Of a stretch of 64,000 nucleotides of DNA, positions 2 through 14,759 are shown piece by piece. The position numbers and the translations under genes are program-made. Under the pieces are notes generated by a model. The model did no database searches. It was not told the DNA's origin and saw only the letters and a list, made by a program, of their open reading frames with translations. Source of the DNA: Escherichia coli (lineage in GTDB: Bacteria > Pseudomonadota > Gammaproteobacteria > Enterobacterales > Enterobacteriaceae); assembly GCF_050920415.1 (NCBI RefSeq), contig NZ_CP169309.1; one strand, given 5' to 3'. Position 1 is the first letter of the stretch, and the number at the start of each line of letters is the position of its first letter.

Positions 2-817
2 GTTGAGAACTACGCCACGCTTACCCGCAGCGAAACACTGCTGCCGCTGGTGGGCGATAAAGCGAAGTTACAGCATTACGCCGCGACCACGCCGATTGTC
101 GATATGGTGCGTTTCTCTCCTGCGCAGCTTGACGCTGAAGCCCTGATTAACTTGCTGCGCCCGCTGACCCCGCGCCTGTACTCCATCGCCTCCTCGCAGG
201 CGGAAGTCGAGAACGAAGTACACGTCACCGTTGGTGTGGTGCGTTATGACATTGAAGGCCGCGCCCGTGCTGGCGGTGCCTCCAGCTTTCTTGCGGACCG
301 TGTGGAAGAAGAGGGCGAAGTCCGCGTATTTATCGAACATAACGACAACTTCCGCCTGCCCGCTAACCCGGAAACGCCGGTGATTATGATTGGCCCAGGC
401 ACCGGCATCGCGCCATTCCGCGCCTTTATGCAGCAACGCGCCGCTGACGAAGCGCCGGGCAAAAACTGGCTGTTCTTCGGCAACCCACACTTTACCGAAG
501 ATTTCCTCTACCAGGTGGAGTGGCAGCGCTACGTCAAAGAGGGCGTGCTGACGCGTATCGATCTTGCCTGGTCGCGCGATCAAAAAGAAAAAATTTACGT
601 ACAAGACAAAATGCGCGAACAGGGCGCAGAGCTGTGGCGCTGGATCAATGACGGTGCCCACATTTATGTCTGCGGCGACGCTAATCGCATGGCGAAAGAC
701 GTTGAACAGGCACTTCTGGAAGTGATTGCCGAATTTGGTGGCATGGACACCGAAGCGGCGGATGAATTTTTAAGTGAGCTGCGCGTAGAGCGCCGTTATC
801 AGCGAGATGTCTACTAA
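2..817 (+). CDS. cysJ: Sulfite reductase [NADPH] flavoprotein alpha subunit, C-terminal part (5' end lies outside the window)
   Basis: Reading frame is open from window start; translation shows the FAD/NADPH-binding C-terminus of CysJ; stop overlaps the cysI ATG by 1 nt (TAATG); followed by cysI and cysH in operon order. Confidence 0.9.
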
Positions 818-2529
818 TGAGCGAAAAACATCCAGGGCCTTTAGTGGTCGAAGGTAAACTGACAGACGCCGAGCGCATGAAGCTTGAGAGCAACTACCTG
901 CGCGGGACCATTGCGGAAGATTTAAACGACGGTCTGACCGGCGGCTTTAAGGGCGACAACTTCCTGCTGATCCGTTTCCACGGTATGTATCAGCAGGATG
1001 ACCGCGATATCCGCGCCGAACGTGCTGAACAGAAGCTGGAACCGCGTCATGCGATGCTGCTGCGCTGCCGTCTGCCGGGTGGGGTGATCACCACTAAACA
1101 GTGGCAGGCAATTGATAAATTCGCCGGTGAAAACACCATTTATGGCAGCATTCGCCTGACCAACCGCCAGACGTTCCAGTTCCACGGCATTCTGAAAAAG
1201 AACGTCAAACCGGTGCACCAGATGCTGCACTCGGTCGGTCTTGATGCGCTGGCGACCGCCAACGACATGAACCGTAATGTACTCTGCACCTCGAACCCAT
1301 TTGAATCTCAGTTGCACGCGGAAGCGTATGAGTGGGCGAAGAAAATCTCTGAACATCTGCTGCCGCGTACCCGCGCCTACGCGGAGATCTGGCTCGATCA
1401 GGAAAAAGTCGCCACCACTGACGAAGAACCGATCCTCGGTCAGACCTATCTGCCGCGTAAATTCAAAACCACGGTAGTGATCCCGCCGCAGAACGATATC
1501 GATCTGCACGCCAACGACATGAACTTTGTGGCGATCGCGGAAAACGGCAAGCTGGTGGGCTTCAACCTGCTGGTGGGTGGTGGGCTTTCTATCGAACACG
1601 GCAACAAGAAAACCTACGCCCGCACGGCGAGCGAGTTTGGCTATCTGCCACTGGAGCATACGCTGGCGGTGGCGGAAGCGGTCATTACCACTCAGCGTGA
1701 CTGGGGTAATCGTACTGACCGTAAAAACGCCAAAACCAAATACACGCTGGAGCGCGTGGGGGTCGAGACGTTTAAAGCAGAAGTGGAACGTCGCGCGGGG
1801 ATCAAGTTCGAACCGATCCGTCCGTATGAATTTACCGGTCGCGGCGATCGTATCGGCTGGGTAAAAGGGATCGACGACAAATGGCACTTGACGCTGTTTA
1901 TCGAAAATGGCCGAATTCTTGATTATCCGGGACGTCCGCTGAAAACCGGCCTGTTGGAGATCGCAAAGATCCACAAAGGTGATTTCCGCATTACGGCGAA
2001 CCAGAATCTGATCATCGCCGGTGTACCGGAAAGCGAGAAAGCGAAGATTGAGAAGATCGCCAAAGAGAGCGGATTGATGAATGCCGTCACGCCGCAGCGC
2101 GAAAACTCAATGGCCTGCGTGTCATTCCCGACTTGCCCGTTGGCGATGGCGGAAGCGGAGCGTTTCCTGCCGTCGTTTATCGATAACATCGATAATTTAA
2201 TGGCGAAACATGGTGTCAGCGATGAGCATATCGTGATGCGTGTAACAGGCTGCCCGAACGGTTGTGGTCGCGCGATGCTGGCGGAAGTGGGCCTGGTGGG
2301 TAAAGCGCCTGGGCGCTACAACCTGCATCTTGGTGGCAACCGCATTGGGACACGTATCCCACGGATGCATAAAGAAAACATCACCGAGCCGGAAATCCTG
2401 GCGACGCTTGATGAACTGATAGGGCGCTGGGCGAAAGAACGTGAAGCGGGTGAAGGCTTCGGCGACTTTACGGTGCGTGCGGGCATCATTCGCCCGGTGC
2501 TCGATCCGGCGCGTGATTTGTGGGATTAA
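817..2529 (+). CDS. cysI: Sulfite reductase hemoprotein beta subunit (siroheme/4Fe-4S)
   Basis: 570-aa ORF, length and sequence typical of CysI, with a C-terminal Cys cluster (CPNGCGR); translationally coupled to cysJ. Confidence 0.95.
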
Positions 2530-2560
2530 TATGAATTGCCGCTTCAACTCGGTTTTGTTG

Positions 2561-2636
2561 GCCTGATAAGCGAAGCGCCATCAGGCACTGTGACACCTTT
2601 TGCCGGATGTGGCATAAACGTCTTATCCGGCCTACT
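2561..2636. repeat. REP/BIME-like palindromic units in the cysI-cysH intergenic region
   Basis: Two GC-rich imperfect palindromes (gcctgataagcgaagcgccatcaggc and gccggatgtggcataaacgtcttatccggc) of the REP type. Confidence 0.6.
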
Positions 2637-2665
2637 TAACCCGCAAGGCAAACAGTGAGGAATCT

Positions 2666-3400
2666 ATGTCCAAACTCGATCTAAATGCGCTGAACGAACT
2701 GTCGAAGGTAGATCGCATTCTGGCGCTGGCGGAAACTAACGCCGAGCTTGAAAAACTGGATGCTGAAGGCCGCGTCGCCTGGGCGCTGGATAATCTGCCC
2801 GGTGAATATGTGCTTTCTTCCAGCTTCGGCATTCAGGCGGCGGTGAGCCTGCATCTGGTGAATCAGGTTCGCCCGGATATTCCGGTGATCCTCACCGATA
2901 CGGGTTATCTGTTCCCTGAAACCTACCGCTTTATTGACGAGTTAACGGACAAACTCAAGCTCAACCTGAAAGTGTACCGCGCTACCGAAAGCGCTGCCTG
3001 GCAGGAAGCACGCTACGGCAAACTGTGGGAACAGGGCGTTGAAGGCATTGAAAAGTACAACGATATCAACAAAGTCGAACCGATGAACCGGGCGCTGAAA
3101 GAACTAAACGCGCAAACGTGGTTTGCTGGCCTGCGCCGTGAACAATCCGGCAGCCGCGCTAATTTACCGGTGCTGGCAATTCAGCGTGGTGTATTCAAAG
3201 TGCTGCCGATTATCGACTGGGATAACCGAACTATTTATCAGTACCTGCAAAAACATGGCCTGAAATATCATCCATTATGGGACGAAGGATATTTATCGGT
3301 CGGTGATACCCATACAACCCGTAAATGGGAACCTGGTATGGCGGAAGAAGAAACGCGTTTCTTTGGCTTAAAAAGGGAATGTGGGCTGCACGAAGGGTAA
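2666..3400 (+). CDS. cysH: Phosphoadenosine phosphosulfate (PAPS) reductase
   Basis: 244-aa ORF with PAPS reductase family sequence and the C-terminal ECGLH motif; sits downstream of cysJI. Confidence 0.95.
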
Positions 3401-3417
3401 ATATTGCCGGATAAAAT

Positions 3418-3458
3418 AAACGCCTCTGTCAGAAATGATGGGGGCGTTTTTATTTTGC
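3418..3458 (+). terminator. Rho-independent terminator downstream of cysH
   Basis: Hairpin aacgcc...ggcgtt followed by ttttatttt, 18 nt after the cysH stop. Confidence 0.55.
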
Positions 3459-3757
3459 GAGCCGCATTCCGGCATTTAAACGTGAATATAGCAGGGGAAA
3501 TCAACAGTTATAGAATGGCGTCGGGTGCTTGAGGCTGTCTGGCGTTAAGCATTCGCGAGGTTCCAGATGGACAAAAGCCCCAGGCGATATATCTATCAAC
3601 CTGAGGCTCGCGTTCGAACGTAGCAATTCGGATGTTAGTCTCTTCTTTGCAGGGAGGCAAGACATGTGTATATCACTGTAATTCGATATTTATGAGCAGC
3701 ATCGAAAAATAGTCCACTGATATCATCGATAATACTAAAAAAACAGGGAGGCTATTA

Positions 3758-6424
3758 ATGGAACCTTTTAAATATATATGTCATTACTGGGGGAAATCCT
3801 CAAAAAGCCTGACGAAAGGAAATGATATTCATCTGTTGATTTATCATTGCCTGGATGTTGCAGCTGTTGCAGATTGCTGGTGGGATCAATCAGTCGTACT
3901 ACAAAATGCTTTTTGCCGAAATGAAATGCTATCAAAACAGAAGGTGAAAGCCTGGCTGTTATTTTTCATTGCCCTTCATGATATCGGAAAGTTTGATATA
4001 CGATTCCAATATAAATCAGCAGAAAGTTGGCTGAAATTAAATCCTGCAACGTCATCACTTAATGGTCCATCAACACAAATGTGCCGTAAATTTAATCATG
4101 GTGCAGCCGGTCTGTATTGGTTTAACCAGGATTCACTTTCAGAGCAATCTCCCGGGGATTTTTTCAGTTTTTTTGATGCCGCTCCTCATCCTTATGAGTC
4201 CTGGTTTCCTTGGGTAGAGGCCGTTACAGGACATCATGGTTTTATATTACATTCCCAGGATCAAGATAAGTCGCGTTGGGAAATGCCAGCTTCTCTGGCA
4301 TCTTATGCTGCGCAAGATAAACAGGCTCGTGAGGAGTGGATATCTGTACTCGAAGCATTATTTTTAACACCAGCCGGGTTATCTATAAACGATATACCAC
4401 CTGATTGTTCATCATTGTTAGCAGGTTTTTGCTCGCTTGCTGACTGGTTAGGTTCCTGGACCACAACGGATACCTTTCTATTCAAAGAAGATGCACCTTC
4501 AGGCATACAAGCGCTAAGAAAATATTTTCAGGATAGACAACAGGATGCGTGTCGGGTACTGGAGTTGAGTGGCCTTGTATCAAATAAGCGTAGTTATGAC
4601 GGCGTACATGCCTTACTGGACAATGGCTATCAACCAAGACAATTACAGGTGTTGGTTGATGCTCTTCCTACAGCTCCCGGGCTGACGGTGATTGAGGCAC
4701 CTACGGGATCAGGTAAAACCGAAACAGCGCTGGCCTATGCCTGGAAACTTATTGACCAACAACTTGCGGATAGTGTTATTTTTGCCCTCCCTACACAAGC
4801 TACTGCAAATGCAATGCTCAGCAGAATGGAAGCGAACGCGAGCCGTTTATTTACCTCCCCAAATCTTATTCTTGCTCATGGTAATTCACGTTTTAACCAC
4901 CTTTTTCAATCAATAAAATCACGCGCATTTACTGAGCAGGGGCAAGAAGAAGCGTGGGTTCAGTGTTGCCAATGGTTGTCACAAAGCAATAAGAAAGTGT
5001 TTCTTGGGCAAATAGGAGTTTGCACGATTGATCAGGTGTTGATATCGGTATTGCCAGTTAAACACCGCTTTATCCGTGGTTTGGGAATTGGTCGAAGTGT
5101 TTTAATTGTTGATGAAGTTCATGCTTACGACACGTATATGAACGGCTTGCTGGAGGCTGTGCTCAAGGCTCAGGCTGATGTGGGGGGGAGTGTTATTCTT
5201 CTTTCCGCAACTCTACCAATGAAACAAAAACAGAAACTTCTGGATACTTATGGTCTGCATACAGATCCAGAGGAAAATAACTCCGCATATCCACTCATTA
5301 ACTGGCGAGGTGTGAATGGTGCGCAACGTTTTGATCTGTTAGCTCATCCAGAACAACTCCCGCCCCGCTTTTCAATTCAGCTAGAACCTATTTATTTAGC
5401 TGACATGTTACCTGACCTTACGATGTTAGAGCGAATGATCGCAGCGGCAAACGCGGGTGCACAAGTCTGTCTTATTTGCAATTTGGTTGACGTTGCACAA
5501 GTATGCTACCAACGGCTAAAGGAGCTAAATAACACGCAAGTAGATATAGATTTGTTTCATGCACGCTTTACGCTGAACGATCGTCGAGAAAAAGAGAATC
5601 GTGTTATTAGCGATTTCGGAAAAAATGGGGATCGAAATGTTGGACGAATACTTGTCGCCACGCAAGTCGTGGAACAATCGCTCGACGTTGATTTTGATTG
5701 GTTAATTACCCAGCATTGTCCCGCAGATTTGCTTTTCCAACGATTGGGCCGTTTACATCGTCATCATCGCAAATATCGTCCCGCTGGTTTTGAGATTCCT
5801 GTTGCCACCATTTTGCTGCCTGATGGCGAGGGTTACGGACGACATGAGCATATTTATAGCAACGTTAGAGTCATGTGGCGGACGCAGCAACATATTGAGG
5901 AACTTAATGGAGCATCCTTATTTTTCCCTGATGCTTACCGGCAATGGCTGGATAGCATTTACGATGATGCGGAAATGGATGAGCCAGAATGGGTCGGCAA
6001 TGGCATGGATAAATTTGAAAGCGCCGAGTGTGAAAAAAGGTTCAAGGCTCGTAAGGTTCTGCAGTGGGCTGAAGAATATAGCTTGCAGGATAACGATGAA
6101 ACCATTCTTGCGGTAACGAGGGATGGGGAAATGAGCCTGCCATTATTGCCTTATGTACAAACGTCTTCAGGTAAACAACTGCTCGATGGCCAGGTCTACG
6201 AGGACCTAAGTCATGAACAGCAGTATGAGGTGTTAGCACTTAATCGCGTCAATGTACCCTTCACTTGGAAACGTAGTTTTTCTGAAGTAGTAGATGAAGA
6301 TGGGTTACTTTGGCTGGAAGGGAAACAGAATCAGGATGGATGGATCTGGCAGGGTAATAATATTGTTATTACCTACACTCGGGATGAAGGGATGACCAGA
6401 GTCATCCCTGCAAATCCCAAATAA
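3758..6424 (+). CDS. cas3: Cas3 HD nuclease / DEAD-box helicase (type I-E)
   Basis: 888-aa ORF with an N-terminal HD domain (HDIGK), a Walker A motif (APTGSGKT) and a DEVH box; immediately precedes casABCDE. Confidence 0.95.
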   Translation: MEPFKYICHYWGKSSKSLTKGNDIHLLIYHCLDVAAVADCWWDQSVVLQNAFCRNEMLSKQKVKAWLLFFIALHDIGKFDIRFQYKSAESWLKLNPATSSLNGPSTQMCRKFNHGAAGLYWFNQDSLSEQSPGDFFSFFDAAPHPYESWFPWVEAVTGHHGFILHSQDQDKSRWEMPASLASYAAQDKQAREEWISVLEALFLTPAGLSINDIPPDCSSLLAGFCSLADWLGSWTTTDTFLFKEDAPSGIQALRKYFQDRQQDACRVLELSGLVSNKRSYDGVHALLDNGYQPRQLQVLVDALPTAPGLTVIEAPTGSGKTETALAYAWKLIDQQLADSVIFALPTQATANAMLSRMEANASRLFTSPNLILAHGNSRFNHLFQSIKSRAFTEQGQEEAWVQCCQWLSQSNKKVFLGQIGVCTIDQVLISVLPVKHRFIRGLGIGRSVLIVDEVHAYDTYMNGLLEAVLKAQADVGGSVILLSATLPMKQKQKLLDTYGLHTDPEENNSAYPLINWRGVNGAQRFDLLAHPEQLPPRFSIQLEPIYLADMLPDLTMLERMIAAANAGAQVCLICNLVDVAQVCYQRLKELNNTQVDIDLFHARFTLNDRREKENRVISDFGKNGDRNVGRILVATQVVEQSLDVDFDWLITQHCPADLLFQRLGRLHRHHRKYRPAGFEIPVATILLPDGEGYGRHEHIYSNVRVMWRTQQHIEELNGASLFFPDAYRQWLDSIYDDAEMDEPEWVGNGMDKFESAECEKRFKARKVLQWAEEYSLQDNDETILAVTRDGEMSLPLLPYVQTSSGKQLLDGQVYEDLSHEQQYEVLALNRVNVPFTWKRSFSEVVDEDGLLWLEGKQNQDGWIWQGNNIVITYTRDEGMTRVIPANPK

Positions 6425-6838
6425 CTTCGGGAATGATTGGTATCAATGACGATAACAAGACCAATAACGGTTTATCCCTACTTAAGTAGGGAAGGTGCAC
6501 AATGTACATCTTCTTTTAATTTCCCGGTATGAGATTTTATATTCACAGTATGAATATTTTATGTAATAAAATTTATGGTAATTATTATAACTAAAAATTT
6601 CTTTGATAATAAAACGAATAACTTGCAGATTTGAAATGCATGCATTATTGTCTTTAAACAATTCAACACATCTTAATATATGCATAGGTTAATTGTATTA
6701 AACCAATGAATATATTTTTGCAGTGAATGTGATTATTGAATTAATTACGCCGTATTTTTTCTTTGTTTTTACCGATAACGGAAGTGTGCCGACGTATAGA
6801 AATGCAGGAGAAATGTCGGAGCATATGAAGGAGAACAA
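6425..6838 (+). promoter_or_regulatory. AT-rich cas3-casA intergenic region carrying the Cascade operon promoter (H-NS/LeuO-regulated in K-12)
   Basis: 414-bp strongly AT-rich non-coding stretch directly upstream of casA. The promoter assignment comes from published K-12 work, not from exact motif positions read here. Confidence 0.45.
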
Positions 6839-8347
6839 ATGAATTTGCTTATTGATAACTGGATCCCTGTACGCCCGCGAAACGGGGGGAAAGTCCAAAT
6901 CCTAAATCTGCAATCGCTATACTGCAGTAGAGATCAGTGGCGGTTAAGTTTGCCCCGTGACGATATGGAACTGGCCGCTTTAGCACTGCTGGTTTGCATT
7001 GCACAAATTATCGCCCCGGCAAAAGATGACGTTGAATTTCGACATCGCATAATGAATCCGCTCACTGAAGATGAGTTTCAACGACTCATCGCGCCGTGGA
7101 TAGATATGTTCTACCTTAATCACGCAGAACATCCCTTTATGCAGACCAAAGGTGTCAAAGCAAATGATGTGACTCCAATGGAAAAACTATTGGCAGGGGT
7201 AAGCGGCGCGACGAATTGTGCATTTGTCAATCAACCGGGGCAGGGTGAAGCATTATGTGGTGGATGCACTGCGATTGCGTTATTCAACCAGGCGAATCAG
7301 GCACCTGGTTTTGGTGGTGGCTTTAAAAGCGGTTTACGTGGAGGAACACCTATAACCACCTTCGTATGTGGGATCGATCTTCGCTCGACGGTGTTACTCA
7401 ATGTCCTCACAATACCTCGTCTTCAAAAACAATTTCCCAATGAATCAAATACGGAAAACCAACCTACCTGGATTAAGCCTGTCAAGCCCAATGAATCTGT
7501 GCCAGCTTCGTCAATTGGGTTTGTCCGTGGCTTATTCTGGCAACCAGCGCATATTGAATTATGCGATCCCATTGGGATTGGTAAATGTTCTTGCTGTGGA
7601 CAGGAAAGCAATTTGCGTTATACAGGTTTTCTTAAGGAAAAATTTACCTTTACAGTTAATGGGCTATGGCCCCATCCGCATTCCCCTTGTCTGGTAACAG
7701 TCAAGAAAGGGGAGGTTGAGGAAAAATTTCTTGCTTTCACCACCTCCGCACCATCATGGACGCAAATCAGCCGAGTTGTGGTAGATAAGATTATTCAAAA
7801 TGAAAATGGAAATCGCGTGGCGGCGGTTGTGAATCAATTCAGAAATATTGCGCCGCAAAGTCCTCTTGAATTGATTATGGGGGGATATCGTAATAATCAA
7901 GCATCTATTCTTGAACGACGTCATGATGTGCTGATGTTTAATCAGGGGTGGCAACAATACGGCAATGTTATAAACGAAATAGTGACTGTTGGTTTGGGGT
8001 ATAAAACAGCCTTACGCAAGGCGTTATATACTTTTGTGGAAGGTATTAAAAATAAAGACTTTAAAGGGGCTGGAGTCTCTGTTCATGAGACTGCAGAAAG
8101 GCATTTCTATCGACAGAGTGAATTATTAATTCCCGATGTATTGGCGAATGTTAATTTTTCCCAGGCTGATGAGGTAATAGCTGATTTACGAGACAAACTT
8201 CATCAATTGTGTGAAATGCTATTTAATCAATCTGTAGCTCCCTATGCACATCATCCTAAATTAATAAGCACATTAGCACTCGCCCGCGCCACGCTATACA
8301 AACATTTACGGGAGTTAAAACCGCAAGGAGGGCCATCAAATGGCTGA
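6839..8347 (+). CDS. casA: Cascade large subunit Cse1/CasA
   Basis: 502-aa ORF at the head of the Cascade operon; start MNLLIDNWIPVRPR matches Cse1. Confidence 0.95.
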   Translation: MNLLIDNWIPVRPRNGGKVQILNLQSLYCSRDQWRLSLPRDDMELAALALLVCIAQIIAPAKDDVEFRHRIMNPLTEDEFQRLIAPWIDMFYLNHAEHPFMQTKGVKANDVTPMEKLLAGVSGATNCAFVNQPGQGEALCGGCTAIALFNQANQAPGFGGGFKSGLRGGTPITTFVCGIDLRSTVLLNVLTIPRLQKQFPNESNTENQPTWIKPVKPNESVPASSIGFVRGLFWQPAHIELCDPIGIGKCSCCGQESNLRYTGFLKEKFTFTVNGLWPHPHSPCLVTVKKGEVEEKFLAFTTSAPSWTQISRVVVDKIIQNENGNRVAAVVNQFRNIAPQSPLELIMGGYRNNQASILERRHDVLMFNQGWQQYGNVINEIVTVGLGYKTALRKALYTFVEGIKNKDFKGAGVSVHETAERHFYRQSELLIPDVLANVNFSQADEVIADLRDKLHQLCEMLFNQSVAPYAHHPKLISTLALARATLYKHLRELKPQGGPSNG

Positions 8348-8822
8348 TGAAATTGATGCAATGGCTTTATATCGAGCCTGGCAACAGCTGGATAACGGAG
8401 CATGTGCGCAAATTAGACGTGTTTCAGAACCTGATGATTTACGCGATATCCCTGCGTTTTATCGGTTGGTGCAACCTTTTGGTTGGGAAAACCTGCGTCA
8501 CCAACAGGCTCTTTTGCGCATGGTGTTTTGCCTGAGCGCAGGAAAGAATGTCATCCGACATCAGGATAAAAAACCGGAGCAAACAATAGGTATCTCGTTG
8601 GGAAGAGCTTTAGCCAATAGTGGAAGAATTAACGAGCGCCGTATCTTCCAATTGATTCGGGCTGACAGAACAGCCGATATGGTCCAGTTACGTCGATTGC
8701 TTGCTCACGCCGAACCCGTACTTGACTGGTCATTAATGGCCCGGATGTTGACCTGGTGGGGAAAGCGCGAACGCCAGCAACTTCTGGAAGATTTTGTATT
8801 GACCACAAACAAAAATGCGTAA
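8340..8822 (+). CDS. casB: Cascade small subunit Cse2/CasB
   Basis: 160-aa ORF overlapping the casA 3' end by 8 nt; position and size match Cse2. Confidence 0.93.
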   Translation: MADEIDAMALYRAWQQLDNGACAQIRRVSEPDDLRDIPAFYRLVQPFGWENLRHQQALLRMVFCLSAGKNVIRHQDKKPEQTIGISLGRALANSGRINERRIFQLIRADRTADMVQLRRLLAHAEPVLDWSLMARMLTWWGKRERQQLLEDFVLTTNKNA

Positions 8823-8834
8823 GGAAACCTCTCA

Positions 8835-9926
8835 ATGTCTAATTTTATTAATATCCATGTCCTGATCTCTCACAGCCCTTCATGTCTGAACCGCGACGAT
8901 ATGAACATGCAGAAAGACGCTATTTTCGGCGGGAAAAGGCGAGTAAGAATTTCAAGTCAAAGCCTTAAACGTGCGATGCGTAAAAGTGATTATTACGCAC
9001 AAAATATTGGTGAATCCAGTCTCAGAACAATTCATCTTGCACAATTACGTGATGTTCTTCGGCAAAAACTTGGTGAACGTTTTGAGCAAAAAATCATCGA
9101 TAAGACATTAGCTCTGCTCTCCGGTAAATCAGTTGATGAAGCTGAAAAGATTTCTGCCGATGCGGTTACTCCCTGGGTTGTGGGAGAAATAGCCTGGTTC
9201 TGTGAGCAGGTTGCAAAAGCAGAGGCAGATAATCTGGATGATAAAAAGCTGCTCAAAATTCTTAAGGAAGATATTGCCGCTATCCGTGTGAATTTACAGC
9301 AGGGGGTTGATATTGCGCTTAGCGGAAGAATGGCAACCAGCGGCATGATGAGTGAGTTGGGAAAAGTTGATGGTGCAATGTCCATTGCGCACGCGATCAC
9401 GACCCATCAGGTTGATTCTGATATTGACTGGTTCACCGCCGTAGATGATTTACAGGAACAAGGTTCTGCACATCTGGGAACACAGGAATTTTCATCGGGT
9501 GTTTTTTATCGTTATGCCAACATTAACCTTGCTCAACTTCAGGAAAATTTAGGCGGCGCCTCCTGGGAGCAGGCTCTGGAAATTGCAACCCATGTTGTTC
9601 ATATGCTGGCAACAGAGGTCCCTGGAGCAAAACAGCGTACTTATGCCGCTTTTAACCCTGCGGAGATGGTAATGGTTAATTTCTCCGATATGCCACTTTC
9701 TATGGCAAATGCTTTTGAAAAAGCGGTGAAAGCGAAAGATGGCTTTTTGCAACCGTCTATACAGGCGTTTAATCAATATTGGGATCGCGTTGCGAATGGC
9801 TATGGTCTGAACGGAGCTGCTGCGCAATTTAGCTTGTCTGACATGGACCCAATTACTGCTCAGGTTAAACAAATGCCTACTTTAGAACAGTTAAAATCCT
9901 GGGTTCGTAATAATGGCGAGGCGTGA
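8835..9926 (+). CDS. casC: Cascade backbone subunit Cas7/CasC
   Basis: 363-aa ORF in operon position 3. Confidence 0.95.
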
Positions 9927-9928
9927 AC

Positions 9929-10603
9929 ATGAGATCTTATTTGATCTTGCGGCTTGCTGGGCCAATGCAAGCCTGGGGGCTGCCGACCTTTGAAGGAACG
10001 CGACCTACCGGAAGATTTCCGACCCGAAGCGGGTTATTAGGGCTACTCGGGGCTTGTCTTGGGATCCAACGTGATGATACTTCTTCATTACAGGTGTTAT
10101 CAGAGAGTGTGCAATTTGCAGTGCGTTGCGATGAACTCATTCTTGACGATCGTCGTGTGTCTGTAACGGGGTTGCGTGATTACCATACAGTCCTTGGAGC
10201 GCGAGAAGATTACCGTGGTTTGAAAAGTCATGAAACGATTCAAACATGGCGCGAATATTTATGTGATGCCTCCTTTACCGTCGCTATCTGGTTAACACCA
10301 CAGGCAACGATGGTTATGTCAGAACTTGAAAAAGCAGTATTAAAGCCTCGGTATACACCGTATCTGGGGCGGAGGAGTTGTCCGCTAACACAACCGCTTT
10401 TTCTCGGGACATGTCAGGCGTCGGATCCTCAGAAGGCGCTATTAAATTATGAGCCCGTTGGCGGCGATATTTATAGTGAGGAATCAGTTGACGGGCATCA
10501 TTTAAAATTTACGGTGCGCGACGAACCGATGATCACCTTACCTCGACAATTTGCTTCCCGGGAATGGTATGTGATTAAAGGAGGTATGGATGTATCTCAG
10601 TAA
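9929..10603 (+). CDS. casD: Cascade subunit Cas5/CasD
   Basis: 224 aa from the ATG at 9929 (the ORF track begins 2 codons earlier at a GTG); start MRSYLILRLAGPMQAWG. Confidence 0.9.
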   Translation: MRSYLILRLAGPMQAWGLPTFEGTRPTGRFPTRSGLLGLLGACLGIQRDDTSSLQVLSESVQFAVRCDELILDDRRVSVTGLRDYHTVLGAREDYRGLKSHETIQTWREYLCDASFTVAIWLTPQATMVMSELEKAVLKPRYTPYLGRRSCPLTQPLFLGTCQASDPQKALLNYEPVGGDIYSEESVDGHHLKFTVRDEPMITLPRQFASREWYVIKGGMDVSQ

Positions 10604-11189
10604 AATCATCATTGCCAGGGCCTGTAGCAGGGATCTTTACCAACTTCACCAGGGATTATGGCATTTATTTCCAAATAGACCAGATGCTGCTCGTGATTTT
10701 CTTTTTCATGTTGAGAAGCGAAACACACCAGAAGGCTGTCATGTTTTATTGCAGTCAGCGCAAATGCCTGTTTCAACTGCCGTTGCGACAGTCATTAAAA
10801 CTAAACAGGTTGAATTTCAACTTCAGGTTGGTGTTCCACTCTATTTTCGGCTTCGGGCAAATCCGATCAAAACTATTCTCGACAATCAAAAGCGTCTGGA
10901 CAGTAAAGGGAATATTAAACGCTGTCGGGTTCCGTTAATAAAAGAAGCAGAACAAATCGCGTGGTTGCAACGTAAATTGGGCAATGCGGCGCGCGTTGAA
11001 GATGTGCATCCCATATCGGAACGGCCACAGTATTTTTCTGGGGAAGGTAAAAATGGAAAAATCCAAACGGTTTGCTTTGAAGGTGTGCTCACCGTCAATG
11101 ACGCATCAGCGTTAATGGATCTTATACAGCAAGGTATTGGGCCAGCCAAATCGATGGGATGTGGTTTGCTATCTTTGGCTCCACTGTGA
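10590..11189 (+). CDS. casE: Cas6e/CasE pre-crRNA endoribonuclease
   Basis: 199-aa ORF overlapping the casD 3' end; Cas6e family. Confidence 0.95.
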   Translation: MYLSKIIIARACSRDLYQLHQGLWHLFPNRPDAARDFLFHVEKRNTPEGCHVLLQSAQMPVSTAVATVIKTKQVEFQLQVGVPLYFRLRANPIKTILDNQKRLDSKGNIKRCRVPLIKEAEQIAWLQRKLGNAARVEDVHPISERPQYFSGEGKNGKIQTVCFEGVLTVNDASALMDLIQQGIGPAKSMGCGLLSLAPL

Positions 11190-11204: not shown

Positions 11205-12408
<1,204 letters not shown>

Positions 12409-12513
12409 AAACAAAGAATTAGCTGATCTTTAATAATAAGGAAATGTTACATTAAGGTTGGTGGGTTGTTTTTATGGGAAAAAATGCTTTAAGAACAAAT
12501 GTATACTTTGAGA
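12409..12513 (+). promoter_or_regulatory. CRISPR leader (AT-rich; array promoter and integration-proximal region)
   Basis: About 105-bp AT-rich sequence between the cas2 stop and the first repeat. Confidence 0.7.
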
Positions 12514-13701
12514 GAGTTCCCCGCGCCAGCGGGGATAAACCGCTCGCGTATACTCTCTGCCAACGTCTCCAGATGAGTTCCCCGCGCCAGCGGGGATAAA
12601 CCGGCGGGATTATCGGCACTGACGTCGGCGCTGTGGAGTTCCCCGCGCCAGCGGGGATAAACCGGGTCGCTTCCATATATGAACCTTGAGGATTAGGAGT
12701 TCCCCGCGCCAGCGGGGATAAACCGGTTCCATGCACTGCCCGCAGTGTCAGCCGTACGAGTTCCCCGCGCCAGCGGGGATAAACCGGTAAATCATACGTT
12801 GGCATCAGTATTTTTCTCGAGTTCCCCGCGCCAGCGGGGATAAACCGACTCCGCGCCATTTGAGAATTCTCAGTTCTGCGAGTTCCCCGCGCCAGCGGGG
12901 ATAAACCGCTACTGCTGTCAGACGGCAGGGCAAAACAGCGGAGTTCCCCGCGCCAGCGGGGATAAACCGGACGTGCGGATGCTGTTTCTGGTTTTACCTC
13001 CGAGTTCCCCGCGCCAGCGGGGATAAACCGTTTTTTCTCAGCGTCTGGCAGAGCTAATCGCCGAGTTCCCCGCGCCAGCGGGGATAAACCGGTGTCAAAT
13101 TTCATGTAATTGATGATCCAGCTGAGTTCCCCGCGCCAGCGGGGATAAACCGGGTATTTCTCGTTAACACGGTCGTATCAAAACGAGTTCCCCGCGCCAG
13201 CGGGGATAAACCGAGGGGTTGCAACCATAGCCCTTAGTTGATTGCGAGTTCCCCGCGCCAGCGGGGATAAACCGCCAGTGGATTTTAATAAACTCTCCAG
13301 CGAGCAGAGTTCCCCGCGCCAGCGGGGATAAACCGTTCGCCACGTCAGGCGTGATTTCCTGCACTGAGAGTTCCCCGCGCCAGCGGGGATAAACAGGGCG
13401 CGTCTGCGCCCGCTAGGACTCGTGTCAAGAGTTCCCCGCGCCAGCGGGGATAAACCGGGAGTTCAGACATAGGTGGAATGATGGACTACGAGTTCCCCGC
13501 GTTAGCGGGGATAAACCGCCCGGTAGCCAGGTTTGCAACGCCTGAACCGAGAGTTCCCCGCGCCAGCAGGGATAAATCGGCAACGACGGTGAGATTTCAC
13601 GCCTGACGCTGGTGTTCCCCGCATCAGCGGGGATAAACCGGGCGCACTGGATGCGATGATGGATATCACTTAGAATTCCCCGCCCCTGCGGTAGAACTCC
13701 C
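12514..13701 (+). CRISPR. Type I-E CRISPR array: 19 regular 29-bp repeats plus one degenerate terminal repeat, 19 spacers of 32 bp
   Basis: Repeat GAGTTCCCCGCGCCAGCGGGGATAAACCG recurs with an exact 61-bp period from 12514 to 13612. Repeats at 13368, 13490, 13551 and 13612 carry point variants, and a heavily degenerate terminal repeat sits at 13673-13701. Confidence 0.97.
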
Positions 13702-13721: not shown

Positions 13722-14759
13722 TCAAGACGCCTTCGCCAGTTCCTTCACTAGCGGTAGCATTATCCGCATAACGTCACGGCAGCGACGTTCTATTCTTCCA
13801 GGAAGCGCCTTATCAATATGCTGTTGATTATCAAGCCTTACATCATGCCAGCTATTTCCCGCCGGGAAGGCCGGTGTTTTTGCGCGTTGCTGATAACCAT
13901 CCTTATTTCCAAGATTCCAGTTGGTCGCCTCCACCGAAAGTACCGCAATACCGGCTTTGTCGAAAACTTCTGCATCGTTACAACACCCAGTGCCTTTCGG
14001 ATAGTTTTTATTCAAACCTGGATTTGTTGTCGCTGCAATCCCATGATTATGCGCAATTGCCAGCGCTCGATCACGGGTTAATTTCCTGACAGCCTCTGGT
14101 GTATTTACACCACTATTAAAATACAATTTATCGCCAACAATTAAGTTATCGAGATTAATCACCAGCAGCGTATTTTTCTTTTCAGTATCGCTCATGCGCT
14201 TGAGTAAATTCTCAGCGCCTAATTTCCCTTCTTCTTCTCCACTGGTTGCCACAAAACGAATACCATACTCGGTAGGCGTATTTTTCAGACGTTCAGCCAG
14301 TTCCAGCATGACACCTAAACCTGCGGCGTTATCATCCATTCCTTGTAATGTCAGCCCGCCGAGATTGGCATCGGCGTCGGCATCGCTCAGTGGAGCGTAC
14401 GTATCAAGATGCGCCATAATAATGATCTGCTGCGGCGCTTTGCCTTCATGAGCGGCAATCACCGTACTTCCCGTCACGTTGTGCCAGTTTTTGCGGTTAT
14501 CGCGGGCGGTGTAAATATATCGGCTATTAAATGTCCGAATATCACTGCGATAACCCATCTGTTGAAACTGTTGGCGAATATAATCGGCAGATAACATTTC
14601 TGCAGGAGTTCCGGTCATGCGTCCCGGAAAGAAAGTAGCAATATGTCGTGCCTGTGTATTAGCAAAATCACCAGGTTTAGGTGACGAGGCGTGTACGGGG
14701 AGAATAAAGCATACGCCGAGCGCCAGGGCAGCGGTACGGTGGCGCAATGCGGAAAACAT
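13722..14759 (-). CDS. iap: Alkaline phosphatase isozyme conversion aminopeptidase
   Basis: 345-aa ORF with a signal peptide and M28-type aminopeptidase sequence; convergent with the CRISPR array. Confidence 0.92.
   Translation of the reverse strand: MFSALRHRTAALALGVCFILPVHASSPKPGDFANTQARHIATFFPGRMTGTPAEMLSADYIRQQFQQMGYRSDIRTFNSRYIYTARDNRKNWHNVTGSTVIAAHEGKAPQQIIIMAHLDTYAPLSDADADANLGGLTLQGMDDNAAGLGVMLELAERLKNTPTEYGIRFVATSGEEEGKLGAENLLKRMSDTEKKNTLLVINLDNLIVGDKLYFNSGVNTPEAVRKLTRDRALAIAHNHGIAATTNPGLNKNYPKGTGCCNDAEVFDKAGIAVLSVEATNWNLGNKDGYQQRAKTPAFPAGNSWHDVRLDNQQHIDKALPGRIERRCRDVMRIMLPLVKELAKAS

Follow-up and report, generated by a model that had tools for sequence, protein, structure and literature searches.

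At each spacer acquisition, the leader-proximal repeat of a CRISPR array is duplicated. In Escherichia and Salmonella, degeneration of the last repeat mostly affects its 3' half (PMC2886076), and degeneracy at the trailer end is a standard cue for tools that predict array orientation (PMC6617893). Almendros et al. (2014, PMC3903273) described two variants of the I-E module in E. coli, of which I-E1 was inferred to be the older, and found the same degenerate repeat and spacer at the iap end whatever the cas-E variant. They also put forward the idea of this terminal degenerate repeat as an 'anchor'. Work on K-12 and on E. coli CRISPR diversity has already documented the ageing of the trailer end and most of the repeat variants reported below.

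Here, we analysed a CRISPR array in a 64,000-nt stretch of an E. coli genome (NCBI RefSeq assembly GCF_050920415.1, contig NZ_CP169309.1; hereafter the window). Its repeats (R1–R20) and spacers (S1–S19) are numbered from the leader. The array shares with K-12 CRISPR-I the cysH-cas3...cas2-leader-array-iap locus, the repeat consensus, the last four spacers, the variant repeats R17 (TT in the loop), R18 (G18A) and R19 (T2, AT in the loop), and a homologous terminal repeat. The two arrays differ in 15 leader-side spacers, and the window has the additional changes R15 C28A and R18 C27T. Moreover, S19 ends in A in the window and in G in K-12, and the K-12 terminal repeat has a 1-nt insertion that R20 lacks and differs at two further positions. 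The I-E1-type (GTG) CRISPR2.1 arrays carry the same R19-S19-R20 unit at the iap end, whereas their other repeats begin with GTG and they have their own cas variant (e.g., a 216-aa Cas6e) and leader. Compared with trailer-end degeneracy in general, where mutated repeats are leader-distal and the last repeat is worn mainly in its 3' half, the window shows no qualitative difference, save for T2 of R19 as a probable ancestral remnant.

The array and its locus

The region 12514–13701 of the window is the iap-proximal type I-E CRISPR-I (CRISPR2.1) array of E. coli, accompanied by a K-12-type (I-E2) cas operon. Its 20 repeats, each 29 nt long, alternate with 19 spacers of 32 nt at an exact period of 61 nt. 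Nineteen repeat copies have at most three mismatches to the consensus GAGTTCCCCGCGCCAGCGGGGATAAACCG (28 nt plus a PAM-derived G) and the last copy matches at 19/29 positions; all are spaced 61 nt apart, where shuffled sequences are expected to yield none. Upstream, on the strand of the array, all eight ORFs of the I-E set (cas3, cse1, cse2, cas7, cas5e, cas6e, cas1e and cas2e) scored above the curated NCBIfam cut-offs. The length of Cas6e (199 aa) equals that annotated for K-12 (locus L002), and the coordinates of cas1e and cas2e were taken over from the PGAP annotation of a near-identical locus (L001). The features of the locus are as follows.

3758–6424, + strand: cas3 (I-E-specific NCBIfam model)
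6839–8347, + strand: cse1 (I-E-specific NCBIfam model)
8340–8822, + strand: cse2 (I-E-specific NCBIfam model)
8835–9926, + strand: cas7 (I-E-specific NCBIfam model)
9923–10603, + strand: cas5e (I-E-specific NCBIfam model)
10590–11189, + strand: cas6e (CasE), endoribonuclease of the repeat hairpin, 199 aa, I-E2 variant (full-length TIGR01907, E = 1e-78)
~11205–12122, + strand: cas1e, adaptation gene (NCBIfam TIGR03638)
~12124–12408, + strand: cas2e, adaptation gene just 5' of the leader (NCBIfam TIGR01873)
12409–12513, + strand: AT-rich leader of the I-E2 type, 105 nt (alignment to the K-12 leader)
13722–14759, − strand: iap, convergent, bounding the trailer end (NCBIfam NF007568, E = 8.5e-212)

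The leader is identical to that of K-12 at 121 of 122 aligned bases, the sole difference being T>G at 12510, which is also found in strain MFDS1022581. Its identity to the leaders found in GTG-type (I-E1) loci is only ~65%. The iap stop codon lies 20 bases beyond the last repeat, and the order cas2-leader-array-iap is kept in nine related loci (PGAP annotation). As cas2 and the K-12-like leader lie upstream and the convergent iap downstream, the array has the orientation given in a preliminary description of this sequence, with transcription expected to run from the leader at 12409–12513 towards iap. A scan for consensus promoters did not flag a leader promoter, so the direction of transcription is deduced from the homologous leader of K-12. 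Terminator-like hits within the array were mostly the repeat hairpins themselves. The Rfam CRISPR-DR families gave no match to the array at E ≤ 1, a lone Chlorobi-1 hit being due to chance.

Elsewhere in the locus, positions 6436–6496 hold a stand-alone repeat-like sequence with 19/29 identity to the repeat, an exact GGGATAAACCG and a hairpin of its own. From its sequence, it is a candidate mini-array of the CreR or cr-like RNA kind, with a 5' handle and a pseudo-spacer whose putative target, to which it is partly complementary, lies in the cas promoter region and adjoins a canonical PAM. This target, at 6621–6590 on the minus strand, has an AAG PAM and matches the pseudo-spacer at 7/7 seed positions and at 13/16 positions overall; four mismatches lie in the first 18 positions, three of them at positions 6, 12 and 18. 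A candidate second pseudo-repeat matches at 14/29 positions.

Variant repeats and their distribution among strains

Comparison of each repeat with the consensus, combined with folding, gave the following units.

12514–13335, + strand: R1–R14 with S1–S13, every repeat identical to the consensus
13368–13396, + strand: R15, C28A, at position −2 of the crRNA-15 5' handle
13397–13428, + strand: S15, with a match (AAG PAM) in a prophage gene for a 'replication endonuclease'
13429–13457, + strand: R16, perfect consensus
13490–13518, + strand: R17, C13T and C14T, tetraloop GCCA>GUUA, stem intact
13551–13579, + strand: R18, G18A (C9·A18 stem mismatch) and C27T (position −3 of the crRNA-18 5' handle)
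13612–13640, + strand: R19, A2T, G12A and C13T (the last two in the tetraloop), stem intact
13641–13672, + strand: S19, species-wide 'anchor' spacer (genome counts; PMC3903273)
13673–13701, + strand: R20, degenerate terminal repeat with 10/29 mismatches

The preliminary description had reported identical repeats at starts 12514–13307, substitutions in the repeats at 13368, 13490, 13551 and 13612, and a barely recognisable last repeat at 13673–13701, all of which we recovered. R20 is a true repeat remnant: it lies exactly in the 61-nt phase and matches the consensus at 19/29 positions, for which the binomial probability is 5e-6, and an identity of at least 19/29 is reached by just 4e-5 of the other 29-mers in the window. 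Eight of its ten mismatches fall in positions 15–29. No 21st unit follows, as identity at the next phase is 6/29.

The numbers of mismatches in R15–R20 are 1, 0, 2, 2, 3 and 10. All five variant repeats lie within the last six of 20 (hypergeometric P = 3.9e-4), and mismatch count correlates with repeat position (Spearman rho = 0.74, P = 1.7e-4), a trend that was reached by none of 100,000 permutations. The clustering of variant repeats at the trailer end is not due to chance, although the variants are inherited as a block and are therefore not independent events. The preliminary description called this pattern progressive decay. A trend is indeed present, but a smooth gradient is not: the series is not strictly monotonic because R16, which that description left out, is perfect, and R20 represents a separate large jump. 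Excluding T2, six of the seven substitutions in R15–R19 are G:C to A:T transitions, and four of the seven fall in the 4-nt loop. The enrichment in the loop gave P = 0.009 when single bases were counted, 0.14 when adjacent doubles were treated as one event and 0.016 after three variants from other strains were added, in a test that was picked after the data had been seen. It is only suggestive that loop changes are the best tolerated of the repeat substitutions.

To place these variants, we used 5,426 complete RefSeq E. coli genomes and parsed the arrays of nine other strains (loci L001–L009). The exact array of the window is absent from the 5,426 genomes. The nearest array, in strain MFDS1022581 (NZ_CP169399.1), equals that of the window minus spacers 4–8, a difference that corresponds to an internal five-spacer deletion between perfect repeats. 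S16-R17-S17 is found at ≥99% identity (at most 1/93 bases differing) in 639 genomes. S17-R18-S18 is found in 651 genomes, 650 of them in the 95–99% identity band; in ten full-length matches sampled, 1/93 bases differs, and in L002 and L003 this base is C27. These two loci thus carry R18 with G18A and without C27T. A copy of S17-R18-S18 identical to that of the window occurs solely in MFDS1022581, as does S14-R15-S15 with C28A. The count of ~650 genomes for R17 and R18 overstates the number of independent lineages because many are clonal K-12 derivatives. R19-S19-R20 has a match in 4,241 of the 5,426 genomes, and R20 is nearly invariant between strains.

Sequencing or assembly errors within the repetitive region, which the preliminary description had named as a possible source of the variant bases, have next to no chance of explaining them. 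Short-read assembly copes poorly with repeat arrays, and the exact array of the window is missing from the complete genomes. However, R17, R18 G18A, R19 and R20 are the same in K-12 and in 639–4,241 complete genomes, and even the private C28A and C27T are repeated in the independent assembly of MFDS1022581. The same variants thus recur in hundreds to thousands of independent assemblies, which excludes this source.

The spacers are in line with an age polarity, with the oldest units at the trailer, as had been proposed for this array. Spacers are strain-specific on the leader side and common to several strains on the trailer side: K-12 (CJ236) and the window have only the last four spacers in common, and GTG-type arrays and the window only the last one. 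Judged by their distribution among strains, R17, R18 G18A, the R19 loop and R20 are old inherited alleles that predate the K-12 split, with R19-S19-R20 as the species-wide 'anchor' unit, and R15 C28A and R18 C27T are recent and private to the lineage of the window and MFDS1022581. Each variant is confined to one unit and the later-made R1–R14 are all consensus; each variant therefore arose after its unit had left the leader-proximal position.

We consider it very probable that these observations reflect the leader-distal ageing of old, vertically inherited repeat alleles, a reading that includes the retained T2 and the functional inferences given below. Leader-side repeats would be young copies of one template, and hence identical, and units shifted towards iap would never be re-copied, so that their substitutions would be kept. 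As an age test, the spacers were searched against phage and plasmid collections; this yielded no protospacers, only mislabelled CRISPR arrays. An exact 22-mer of the anchor spacer, searched in one genome per species, matched only the E. coli representative, so there is no outgroup for dating R19-S19-R20.

The T2 of R19 and the retention of the terminal unit

The base T2 of R19, which had been counted as decay, is probably the ancestral, GTG-type state. All five GAG-type arrays (the window, L001–L003 and L007) are found with a 199-aa Cas6e and K-12-type cas genes, and their leaders are K-12-type in 4/4 aligned. All five GTG-type arrays (L004–L006, L008 and L009) are found with the other cas variant, which has a 216-aa Cas6e, or without cas genes; the leaders aligned for L004 and L006 are of the other type, ~65% identical to that of K-12. 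The same R19 repeat is present in K-12 and in the GTG-type arrays L004–L006. This suggests that T2 is a retained fossil of an older I-E1-type array. The locus would have been taken over by an I-E2 module that brought its own leader and GAG repeats, and the old R19 would have stayed at the iap end. It is parsimony over 10 loci, combined with the published scenario of module evolution, rather than a dated phylogeny, that supports this ancestry.

The accumulation of variants at the conserved end could also reflect survivorship instead of age. If mismatched repeats recombine poorly, the units that they flank would escape deletion and pile up there. Escape from recombination has been proposed for the terminal degenerate repeat (PMC3903273), the deletion that separates MFDS1022581 from the window is bounded by perfect repeats, and the S16–S18 block is intact in ~650 genomes. 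These genomes are heavily clonal K-12 derivatives, however, and one or two mismatches per 29 nt barely alter a homology that is already very short. The R19 variant does get deleted as well: L007, L008 and L009 have a consensus repeat immediately before S19, which indicates that deletions sometimes take out this variant. We regard survivorship as possible, although rather unlikely as the main cause, and it would complement the age explanation rather than replace it.

A further alternative is that selection maintains R19-S19-R20, for instance because it serves as a regulatory crRNA-like guide or signals the end of the pre-crRNA, so that it would not be a neutral fossil. Of the 5,426 genomes, 4,241 retain the unit, among them strains without any cas genes (such as E. 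coli B, L008), and functional degenerate mini-arrays exist in the same locus type. Among eight diverse strains, S19 has 1/32 variable sites and its flanks have 13/89, but this difference is not significant on a sample of eight. Retention in cas-less strains speaks against a Cascade-dependent role, and its place beside the essential-context gene iap and the absence of a partner for recombination account for its persistence even if it has no function. Selection on this unit is thus very improbable, and ageing of inherited alleles remains our preferred explanation for the trailer end.

Predicted hairpins, 5' handles and guide activity

In the crRNA anatomy described for this system (PMC5965381), each repeat folds into a stem of 7 bp closed by a 4-nt loop, and cleavage at the 3' base of the stem leaves an 8-nt 5' handle, AUAAACCG. 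We folded the repeats alone and in a 93-nt context (32 nt on each side). Folding of the whole transcript gave erratic hairpin probabilities, perfect repeats included, so only the local-context folds were used. A stem-loop was predicted in R1–R17 and R19. The consensus, R15 and R17 fold at −15.1 kcal/mol, R19 at −14.4, R18 at −9.7 and R20 at −6.4. Stem (7 bp) and loop (4 nt) are preserved in the consensus, R15, R17 and R19, and in context their pairs have probabilities of at least 0.99. In R18, the C9-G18 pair alone is lost in context, at a cost of ~6 kcal/mol relative to the restored consensus, and the other five G-C pairs, three of which adjoin the cleavage site, retain probabilities of ≥0.99. 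R20 retains four upper pairs and loses the two lowest G-C pairs as well as the G21|A22 cleavage site.

The preliminary description suggested folding each repeat and named the variant at 13551 as one that disrupts the stem. Among the internal repeats, R18 is indeed the only one that touches the stem, R17 and R19 being changed in the loop only (apart from T2). Its hairpin is not broken, though: G18A introduces one C·A mismatch and is predicted to weaken a hairpin that still forms. From these folds, normal cutting is expected for R17 and R19, cutting of R18 may be less efficient, and cleavage of R20 at the usual site is presumably impossible. In the literature covered here, which does not extend to the key 2010–2011 papers, we found no study that directly measured the action of E. 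coli Cas6e on a C9·A18 stem. In vitro, Cascade can be loaded and can bind its target without most of the 3' hairpin (Beloglazova et al., PMC4288178), which therefore matters mainly for cutting.

Two substitutions that the preliminary description did not mention alter 5' handles. In the crRNA-15 handle, R15 C28A becomes C-2A, and in the crRNA-18 handle, R18 C27T becomes C-3U. In K-12 with spacer g8, handle mutants at −1 to −3 were processed normally, and interference needed C at −2, where C-2A gave partial resistance with the canonical PAM only, and at −3, where any other base abolished it (Westra et al. 2013, PMC3764190). By analogy, this suggests that the handle changes matter more than the change in the R18 stem. 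crRNA-15 should be weakened at the interference step with its processing unaffected, and crRNA-18 is predicted to be inactive in the lineage of the window, again at interference and not at processing.

The only protospacer found is that of S15, in E. coli ZF8-1 (L010, 1501–1534), with a 34/34 match in a prophage gene and a canonical AAG PAM, with which A28 of R15 coincides. A 'slipped' acquisition was considered as the origin of C28A and rejected on two grounds: it would require a 27-nt repeat and a 34-nt spacer, and a change in the leader-proximal repeat would have reached R1–R14, which all have C28.

The same substitution turns the PAM-equivalent triplet before S15 from CCG into CAG. For the K-12 I-E system, CCG is 'stable' and CAG is listed as an interfering PAM (Musharova et al. 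2019, PMC6568314), and the same PAM, written CTG, gave only partial interference with plasmids (Westra et al. 2013, PMC3764190). K-12-type cas operons are silenced by H-NS under laboratory conditions (PMC3764190, PMC5965381). There is a slim chance that, on de-repression of the cas operon, crRNA-15 would guide Cascade-Cas3 to the very array that encodes it. Real self-targeting is unlikely because interference with this PAM is partial and crRNA-15 has the C-2A handle defect. If it did occur, it would lead to self-damage, array deletions or self-primed adaptation, and the fact that two genomes keep the allele would indicate how tight the silencing of the system is.

The importance of these observations beyond annotation is small. 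They confirm the orientation of the array, and they mark the trailer units as ancient shared alleles that are of use in E. coli CRISPR typing. Not all trailer-end mismatches are 'decay', and the probable T2 fossil is consistent with the published replacement of I-E1 by I-E2 modules. Substitutions in the 5' handle are predicted to disable single guides despite an intact hairpin, as for crRNA-18 and in part for crRNA-15. Finally, one repeat mutation can create a PAM beside a spacer of the array itself, which would constitute an autoimmunity scenario.

The leader and the first repeat

The leader, which lies between cas2 and the first repeat (R1), differs from that of K-12 at a single base, a T>G substitution at 12510, four bases 5' of R1. 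The same substitution is found in MFDS1022581, the nearest relative. The leader-repeat junction is important for spacer integration. A short direct repeat, TTAAGGTTGGTG..., is also present here in two copies 73 nt apart (12379-12398 and 12452-12471), one at the end of cas2 and the other within the leader. The two copies are 85% identical across 20 nt, and the repeat may reflect chance or a protein-binding motif.

When repeats were folded in their local context, R1 (12514-12542) had a hairpin probability of just 0.56, whereas all other perfect repeats reached 1.00. The low value arises because pairing with the leader sequence competes with the predicted hairpin, and it may be an artefact of the folding model.

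Spacer content and related loci

Among the spacers of the window array, a protospacer was found for spacer 15 only (13397-13428), which perfectly matches a 'replication endonuclease' gene on the chromosome of E. coli ZF8-1 (positions 1501-1534 of that locus) with a canonical AAG PAM. This gene is probably prophage-borne in ZF8-1. The MFDS1022581 locus (NZ_CP169399.1) lacks spacers 4-8, corresponding to 12697-13001 in the window, through a clean deletion bounded by two perfect repeats, and this is an example of recombinational spacer loss within an array. In the E. coli B derivative (NZ_CP115179.1), an IS4-like IS421 element, which adjoins a hok/gef gene, takes the place of the entire cas operon. 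Despite this replacement, the locus still carries a GTG-type array (repeats starting with GTG) of five spacers, with the anchor unit at the iap end kept.

A degenerate repeat between cas3 and cse1

Two features were located between cas3 and cse1:

6436-6496, minus strand: stand-alone degenerate repeat with pseudo-spacer, in the cas3-cse1 intergenic region
6590-6624, minus strand: candidate target of the pseudo-spacer, a sequence match with AAG in front

The degenerate repeat, ACCTTCCCTACTTAAGTAGGGATAAACCG, is identical to the array consensus at 19/29 positions, has its own 6-bp hairpin and retains the exact AUAAACCG handle; its pseudo-spacer is 32 nt long. The matching site lies ~125 nt away on the cse1 side, preceded by AAG, and matches the pseudo-spacer at 7/7 seed positions and 13/16 overall. 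Of the four mismatches within the first 18 positions, three are those at 6, 12 and 18. Conservation of the region extends across 1,132 E. coli genomes, K-12 among them. Mini-arrays that autoregulate cas genes have been described (Shmakov et al. 2023; Liu et al. 2023), and by its sequence the cas3-cse1 element fits a putative mini-array of this type; it is therefore of an already known kind.
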